Shown: piece after piece, positions 1-3,422 of the stretch | Numbering within the stretch: position 1 is the stretch's first letter | How the letters are laid out: every line of letters starts with the position of its first letter | Source of the DNA: Promethearchaeota archaeon | GTDB lineage: Archaea > Asgardarchaeota > Thorarchaeia > Thorarchaeales > Thorarchaeaceae | NCBI GenBank assembly: GCA_014728035.1 | Contig: WJMJ01000059.1 | Location: 1 to 64,000 of the forward strand | DNA length: 64,000 nucleotides | Direction of reading: 5' to 3' | Position numbers and translations under genes: made by a program | Notes under the pieces: generated by a model | Told to the model about the DNA's origin: nothing | Databases searched by the model: none | Seen by the model: only the letters and a program-made list of their open reading frames with translations

Positions 1-321
1 AAACTTGAGAAACCAACCTCTATCTATGAGGTCGGCGAAGTTGGTTCTGTTCGACTAACTCCTATTGACATTCGTGCCCAACTTGAGAATGTCTGGGATG
101 AGGATTATGCTCTCCTTGGTATTAATGCAGAGGCCGCTCGTCTTGAGTGGGCCATTTTCACTGTCCTTCCCGTCCCTCCAGTTACTGTTCGTCCATCGAT
201 CACCTTGGAGTCTGGTGTTCGCTCTGAGGACGACCTTTCACATAAACTCATTGACATCATTCGTATTAATCAACGCTTACGTGAAAATTTGGATGCAGGA
301 GCTCCCAGTCTCATTGTAGAA
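1..321 (+). CDS. rpo1N: RNA polymerase subunit Rpo1N (A'), 5' exon portion; gene starts upstream of the window
   Basis: Frame 1 reads KLEKPTS...VLPVPPVTVRPSITLESGVRSEDDLSHKLIDIIRINQRLRENLDAGAPSLIVE, the conserved Rpo1N/RPB1 clamp region. The frame then enters the insert and stops at TAA 334-336. Confidence 0.95.
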
Positions 322-352
322 AGTGCAGCAGAGTAATTCTGTGTACCTATAA
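322..352 (+). other. Putative 31-nt BHB/BHL (tRNA-type) intron in rpo1N mRNA
   Basis: Central helix GUAG(316-319)/CUAU(347-350); 3-nt bulges AAA(320-322) and AAG(351-353); intron hairpin GUGC-A-GCAGAG/UUCUGU-GUAC. Cutting after the 2nd nt of each bulge joins GAA to GAC, giving [13 protein letters not shown]. Confidence 0.85.

Positions 353-3422
<3,070 letters not shown>

Follow-up and report, generated by a model that had tools for sequence, protein, structure and literature searches.

The archaeal splicing endonuclease (EndA) cleaves bulge-helix-bulge (BHB) motifs between the second and third residues of the bulges (PMC2738675). Among archaeal coding sequences, cbf5 is the only one for which BHB splicing has been demonstrated, the introns of other protein genes being predicted (PMC2738675), and a 2020 study that added an intron in a 5' untranslated region of Haloferax still named cbf5 as the sole other mRNA case (PMC7714728). 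A 2026 preprint on the tRNA introns of Asgard archaea describes repeated and mostly terminal gains, mRNAs not being covered, and our literature search for BHB introns in Asgard protein genes found no paper. From the papers searched, the candidate intron presented here, in the gene coding for the largest subunit of RNA polymerase (rpoA', encoding Rpo1N), therefore extends BHB introns in coding sequence to another host gene and another phylum.

The crenarchaeal cbf5 intron (Watanabe 2002; Yokobori 2009, PMC2738675) is the closest described system. Like the rpoA' insert, it is short, lies within the coding sequence and mostly carries a relaxed BHB motif; its cuts are predicted between residues 2 and 3 of the bulges and its distribution reflects lineage-specific gain and loss. 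The enzyme that cleaves it is a hetero-oligomeric alpha/beta endonuclease, a type which is also encoded in the genome studied here. In contrast to the cbf5 intron, which spans orders in the Crenarchaeota, the rpoA' insert occurs in one species of Asgard/Thorarchaeota, interrupts an RNA polymerase subunit gene and is one of several protein-gene introns in its genome. Furthermore, the splicing of cbf5 has been demonstrated with cDNA and by cleavage in vitro, whereas that of rpoA' is predicted from the DNA sequence.

Three other systems offer partial parallels. The non-canonical BHB and bulge-helix-loop (BHL) tRNA introns cleaved by an (alpha-beta)2 EndA bearing the Crenarchaea-specific loop (CSL), as in Aeropyrum pernix (PMC3241643, PMC5829648), are served by an enzyme homologous to the one found here, with the loop lysine conserved. 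The rpoA' insert shares its architecture with the non-canonical tRNA introns of its own genome and differs from tRNA introns in that the substrate is an mRNA devoid of a tRNA body, a distal 11-bp exon-exon helix replacing the outer helix. The BHB intron in the 5' untranslated region of Haloferax volcanii HVO_1309 (PMC7714728), which is released as a circle, is likewise an EndA substrate borne by an mRNA, but it lies in an untranslated leader, leaves the reading frame uninterrupted, has a canonical motif and is associated with an alpha2-type enzyme. Finally, XBP1/HAC1 resemble the splicing proposed for rpoA' in the spliceosome-independent loss of a short frame-shifting mRNA intron, with RtcB ligation in metazoans. 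They differ by their IRE1 endonuclease, twin stem-loops with 7-nt loops, two functional isoforms and stress regulation, whereas rpoA' has a helix and bulges of BHB type and its unspliced product would be truncated at 334-336.

The interrupted rpoA' gene

The window analysed, to which positions refer unless a contig or locus is named, comprises the initial 64 kb of C25, a contig of G000, which is a metagenome-assembled genome of 4.33 Mb in 173 contigs (97.9% complete, 8.5% estimated contamination). Its rpoA' reading frame is split by a 31-nt insert, AGTGCAGCAGAGTAATTCTGTGTACCTATAA, at 322-352 on the + strand, following ...ATT GTA GAA and preceding GAC CTA TGG.... The window part of exon 1 (1-321, +) is open in frame 1 from the contig start and reads ...DAGAPSLIVE before running into four foreign codons and a TAA at 334-336. 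Exon 2 (353-2212, +) continues in frame 2 with 619 codons from 353 onward and a stop at 2210-2212. The boundary of the insert is degenerate by two bases, as the deletion of 320-350, 321-351 or 322-352 yields an identical product.

Comparison with the congener G001, a genome of the same genus whose rpoA' is devoid of exactly these 31 nt, agrees with the first-pass annotation, which had claimed a frame-shifting insert bringing in the TAA at 334-336. Once the insert is removed, the 726 codons present in the window align with G001 with no gap and 710 of the 726 amino acids are identical (97.8%), exon 1 being 99% identical to G001 residues 191-297 and exon 2 97% identical. The Pfam domain RNA_pol_Rpb1_1 resumes across the junction: exon 1 covers profile positions 173-261 and exon 2 takes up the profile at 264 (264-312) before continuing into Rpb1 domains 2-5. 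Given the ungapped alignment and a dN/dS relative to G001 of 0.014 overall (0.033 for exon 1 and 0.011 for exon 2), both exons are under strong purifying selection, a value which averages the whole divergence (dS of about 1.6, near-saturated) and cannot date the insertion. The usual RpoA' of Thorarchaeota has 884-885 amino acids; a homologous-protein search with RpoA' returned no match above 93% identity, and exact-pattern scans of metagenome contigs for the end of exon 1 and for the intron hairpin returned none.

The rest of the gene was located on another contig. The N-terminal portion of about 190 codons is carried by C82, whose positions 1-141 (reverse) are identical to window 1-141. Because C82 carries the N-terminus and overlaps the window start by 141 nt, rpoA' is complete over the two contigs C82 and C25. 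The overlap is exactly 141 nt, which is k-mer-sized. The contig ends 320 nt upstream of the rpoA' intron, and a branch in the assembly graph is met 180 nt upstream of it.

These features of the assembly bear on the possibility that a hairpin element inactivated one copy of rpoA', leaving a defective allele or young pseudogene while a working copy persists elsewhere or in co-assembled strains. A fragmented genome with estimated contamination at the level given above, a break just upstream that indicates a branch in the assembly graph, and a low dN/dS that averages the whole divergence, and is hence compatible with a very recent inactivation, all leave room for such an allele. A second intact rpo1N together with decay of this copy had been named in the first-pass annotation as an observation that would speak against splicing; neither a second rpoA' nor an intron-less junction is found anywhere in the G000 assembly. 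RNA polymerase is moreover indispensable, and the geometry and register of the insert fit its precise removal exactly. Along with the inserts in other essential genes described below, these observations make a defective allele quite unlikely.

Several other identities of the insert were rejected. An intein at 322-352 is incompatible with an insert that is out of frame and contains a stop. In a split gene with a translational restart, TTG 392 would be the first in-frame start available, at the cost of 13 conserved residues. Group I or group II self-splicing introns have a ribozyme core of hundreds of nucleotides vs 31 nt here, and the only Rfam family match of the window is one tRNA. Elsewhere in the window, DP2, the large subunit of DNA polymerase D (40040-44980, +), contains an in-frame insert of about 467 amino acids (1401 nt, at about 42877-44237), which has a weak match to an intein splicing domain and is absent from G001.

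Predicted fold, splice sites and splicing enzymes

The minimum free energy (MFE) fold of the 87 nt at 290-376 has an energy of -33.8 kcal/mol (z = -4.1), and none of 200 shuffled sequences was as stable. It contains an 11-bp exon-exon helix (297-307 paired with 359-369, + strand), a 4-bp central helix formed by the exon-1 strand GUAG (316-319) and the intron strand CUAU (347-350), an AAA bulge at 320-322 and an intron hairpin at 323-346, whose inner helix h' consists of 5 bp, one bulged base and 4 bp. The predicted intron is thus built of one A, a 24-nt hairpin, CUAU and AA. In the ensemble, the central helix (G316-U350, U317-A349, A318-U348 and G319-C347, each with P of at least 0.99), the 5' bulge (unpaired P = 1.0) and the hairpin are near-certain (P about 1). 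According to the cut rule (PMC2738675), cleavage of the 5' bulge is predicted after A321.

The 3' splice site is less regular. Its triplet AAG (351-353), with a predicted cut after A352, forms no discrete bulge and lies in a loop or takes part in alternative pairs: both A351 and A352 are paired in most of the ensemble (P = 0.98 for U315-A351), the conformer with 351-358 open lies 3.2 kcal/mol above the MFE, and U315-A354 is the only outer base pair possible. The motif therefore possesses the 4-bp central helix, the 3-nt 5' bulge and the inner helix, and lacks the second 3-nt bulge and outer helix of a strict hBHBh' motif. Because the 3' bulge is not clean and a single outer pair is possible, the predicted structure falls into the relaxed HBh'/BHL class, to which most cbf5 introns also belong; this upholds the earlier description of a relaxed exon-side bulge.

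Cuts after the second base of each bulge would remove precisely 322-352 and join GAA to GAC, the predicted spliced junction being ATTGTAGAA followed by GACCTATGG, and the product matches the intron-less orthologue with no gap; the EndA-substrate geometry put forward in the first-pass annotation is consistent with both the fold and this match. Loose BHB-like motifs (A.A/AA bulges) number 324 genome-wide vs 347 in a reversed control, which is the level expected by chance, and a BHB motif alone therefore proves nothing; the argument rests on the exact register. Random 31-nt inserts of the same composition produce a splice-correct BHB at a frequency of 3.5e-4 when an inner helix of at least 5 bp is required, and of 1e-3 when the minimum is set at 4 bp. 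The flank duplex 297-307/359-369 has an energy of -24.5 kcal/mol vs -14.5 +/- 3.9 under synonymous resampling that keeps the same peptides (p = 0.011), and the same flanks in the intron-less G001 reach -14.2 kcal/mol.

Such a register also weighs against the possibility that the 31 nt are absent from the DNA of the organism and were introduced by assembly or sequencing. The genome was indeed assembled from a short-read metagenome, but an artefact would not yield a hairpin and a 4-nt guide complementary to the exon in the sole register that restores the frame. With the recurrence of the same architecture in other genes and in independent assemblies (see below), we regard an artefact as very improbable.

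The same structure has to be considered with regard to translational recoding, in which ribosomes would bypass or frameshift over the 31 nt, in the manner of phage T4 gene 60, with no RNA splicing. As in gene 60, the reading frame meets a stop shortly past the break and the gap contains a hairpin, and cbf5 introns were formerly mistaken for frameshift sites (PMC2738675). A single frameshift cannot work, since a TAA is met at 334 in frame 1 and another at 350 in frame 2, and read-through in frame 3 would place about 10 extra residues within a conserved domain. As for bypassing, there is no landing codon to match the take-off codon GAA (319-321), the triplet preceding GAC being TAA (350-352). 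The structure fits a splicing endonuclease instead, and recoding appears extremely unlikely.

The enzymes that removal of the insert would call for are encoded in the genome. G000 possesses two paralogues of the tRNA_int_endo family, of 188 amino acids (contig C151, L114:1216-1782) and 200 amino acids (contig C51, L115:1213-1815). The 188-aa protein, EndA alpha, has the catalytic Tyr/His/Lys and aligns gap-free to the alpha subunit of A. pernix (3P1Z_B, E = 7e-42), CSL included; its K43/K45 align with K44/R46 of the latter, in which K44 confers cleavage of BHL and off-position introns (PMC3241643). The 200-aa paralogue has lost the catalytic His and, for this reason, is read as a protein that fits a structural beta subunit. 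Asgard archaea have been reported to possess an (alpha-beta)2 EndA bearing the L1 loop (PMC5829648), a type that the G000 pair matches. An intact gene for the RNA ligase RtcB is also present, on contig C44. G000 would thus encode both an EndA suited to relaxed motifs, its substrate range being deduced from homology, and RtcB, in line with the broad-specificity endonuclease anticipated by the first-pass annotation. As the 3' site is not a clean three-base bulge, cleavage of the rpoA' transcript would depend on this homology-predicted relaxed specificity.

Comparable inserts in other genes and genomes

Of 110 rpoA' loci examined in relatives and in further archaea, 107 are uninterrupted, and the 31-nt intron is absent from these as well as from G001. 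It was found in one genome only, the congener and all 37 additional relatives that gave a match being devoid of it, and looks like one of many recent, lineage-specific gains. An apparent split in L023 corresponds to the rpoB/rpoA' boundary and is no intron. G020, a genome of the same family (10 contigs, 98% complete), carries in its rpoA' (L033:1411-1475, +) a 65-nt insert at another site, the removal of which restores DDLSHKLIDIIR (SHKLID). This insert forms a perfect hBHBh' motif with a 4-bp central helix CACA/UGUG, bulges AGG/AAC, and inner and outer helices of 5 and 7 bp, respectively. The rpoA' of L077, from an uncultured archaeon, has an 85-nt insert (2350-2434, +) of the form ATAT[AGA]...ATAT[AAA], whose removal restores GHFGHIELARP. 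These two inserts are independent of the one in the window, and their sites differ from its site and from each other. In every sister case, here and in the protein genes that follow, cutting by the same rule gives back precisely the conserved protein.

The tRNA genes of G000 provide a second group of introns. According to a motif scan, they follow the same splice register as the rpoA' insert, and the non-canonical ones share its build, namely a single base followed by a hairpin, then 4 nt that are complementary to the exon upstream, and finally AA. The 29-nt intron of a tRNA-Pro gene (C9:137605-137721), for instance, has the non-canonical BHB ATCC[AGA]...GGAT[AAT] and is absent from G001; it surfaced in the census described below through a spurious overlapping ORF. 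Two further observations were made on tRNA genes. C26:11286-25121 holds 19 intron-less tRNA genes on one strand within 14 kb, tRNA genes elsewhere in the genome being intron-rich, and this cluster possibly represents a tRNA island of viral or foreign origin, or else a contaminant contig. In the window, ARAGORN calls a tRNA-Pro(CGG) at 29666-29742 (-), which scores below the gathering threshold of the Rfam tRNA model.

A motif-free census, in which stop-to-stop ORFs from 84% of G001 were compared with G000 by tblastn (about 2,765 with a best hit of at least 60% identity), is blind to introns common to both genomes and allowed us to find short inserts that break only two protein genes, rpoA' and ahcY, each of 31 nt and each with a BHB. 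The single-copy ahcY, coding for S-adenosylhomocysteine (SAH) hydrolase, has its insert at C103:93777-93807 (+), with the structure CTAG[TGA], a 24-nt hairpin and CTAG[AAA]; the insert is absent from G001 and its removal restores ...AAAEGHPS joined to EVMDLSF.... A filter combining BHB motifs with the merging of ORFs gave 17,811 candidates, mostly adjacent genes, among which rpoA' and ahcY were the only recognisable cases. A third insert was found by Pfam in an actin gene of the same contig (L255:1052-1081, -). It is a 30-nt in-frame BHB insert ending in TAA (CCAG[AAT], a 23-nt hairpin and CTGG[TAA]), it precedes the conserved tail MWVSRKEF, and its removal restores ...SLKTFQ-K-MWVSRKEF....

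The reverse census revealed a 30-nt in-frame insert in EF-1alpha of G001 (L182:10684-10713, -). This insert includes a stop, has a BHB, lies between DFI and KNMITG and is composed of TCAT[AAA], a 23-nt hairpin and GTGG[AAA]. The EF-1alpha gene of the window itself (8180-9514, +) is uninterrupted. The suggestion that other introns hide as apparent frameshifts is thus borne out by ahcY and actin in G000 and by EF-1alpha in G001. The hexamer TGCAGC stands at the start of the hairpin in three of the four protein-gene mini-introns, those of rpoA' (window 324-329), actin and G001 EF-1alpha, with a post hoc chance of about 1e-4. TGCAGC elements are not enriched genome-wide, with 43 vs about 30 expected in G000 and 13 vs about 18 in G001, and two look-alikes were rejected as lying outside a coding sense context.

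Other candidates were likewise set aside. A third census case with 31 extra nucleotides (C25:73608-73652) is an intergenic indel detected through an antisense ORF and is no intron, and a 187-nt frame-breaking insert in a hydrolase-like gene of G001 lacks a clean BHB in the correct register. At C157:2146-2498 (-), a conserved stretch that is non-coding, with stops in the aligned frame, has a 36-nt insert relative to G001, possibly the intron of an RNA gene that escaped annotation.

These inserts complete the evidence on the alternatives introduced above. The architecture of the rpoA' insert recurs in ahcY, actin and tRNA genes of the same genome, and also in the independent assemblies G001, G020 and L077, which argues against an artefact. 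Similar inserts in other essential single-copy genes, such as EF-1alpha of G001, which is assembled in 19 contigs, and rpoA' of G020, which lies on a 1.55-Mb contig, speak against a defective allele.

They also bear on whether splicing of rpoA' is a rate-limiting and regulated step that gates the synthesis of RNA polymerase, a reading compatible with splicing as such. Full-length Rpo1N would come from the spliced mRNA only, and the competing pairing at the 3' site and the exon-exon helix could in principle modulate efficiency. Against such a device stand the absence of the intron from the congener and the 37 other relatives, and the comparable inserts in unrelated genes and at other rpoA' sites, a pattern of neutral or selfish insertion instead of a conserved control device. 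The unspliced product, moreover, would be a plain truncation with no alternative functional isoform. With no regulated step visible, the XBP1/HAC1-like switch evoked in the first-pass annotation is unsupported, and we consider regulation at this step unlikely.

The best explanation of the sequence comparisons is that the rpoA' intron belongs to a class of mini-introns of about 30 nt which also occurs in tRNA genes, ahcY and actin of the same genome. In the most economical reading, this class would occupy tRNA, rRNA and protein genes alike in the group. More tentatively, it is possible that these inserts represent an actively spreading class of Thorarchaeota mini-introns, each made of one base, a 23-24-nt hairpin, a 4-nt guide and AA, which within one genus would recently have entered rpoA', ahcY and actin, EF-1alpha of the congener and the tRNA genes of both genomes.

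Proposed splicing of rpoA' and its implications

The most economical reading of the locus, and in our view a likely one, is that 322-352 of rpoA' is a pre-mRNA intron, recently gained and spliced by EndA and RtcB; the rpoA' mRNA very probably must be cut and rejoined by the tRNA-splicing enzymes. In the transcript, the last exon bases GUAG would pair with CUAU near the 3' end of the intron, the body of which would fold into the 24-nt hairpin. A heterotetrameric alpha/beta endonuclease with a Crenarchaea-type loop would then cut between A321 and A322 and after A352, RtcB would join GAA to GAC, and the 31-mer would be released, probably as a circle. The full subunit would be translated from the spliced mRNA only, the product of the unspliced mRNA ending at the TAA at 334-336. 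Cleavage, ligation and circularisation in vivo are steps that we infer from the structure of the locus and the enzymes encoded.

If the intron is spliced, the synthesis of RNA polymerase depends on tRNA-splicing enzymes in this lineage, which is close to the origin of eukaryotes. Judging from the sister cases, these enzymes would likewise be required for making actin and SAH hydrolase, and EF-1alpha in the congener, if their inserts are spliced. Annotations and completeness estimates of Asgard metagenome-assembled genomes are affected, since gene callers split or truncate such genes. Should the spreading of mini-introns prove true, mRNAs of the archaea most closely related to eukaryotes would still be acquiring introns, and the expression of core genes would rely on the tRNA-splicing machinery. 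Candidate routes for such gains are insertion at the DNA level, or reverse splicing by EndA/RtcB with subsequent reverse transcription. The differences between two species within one genus offer a natural system for studying intron gain.
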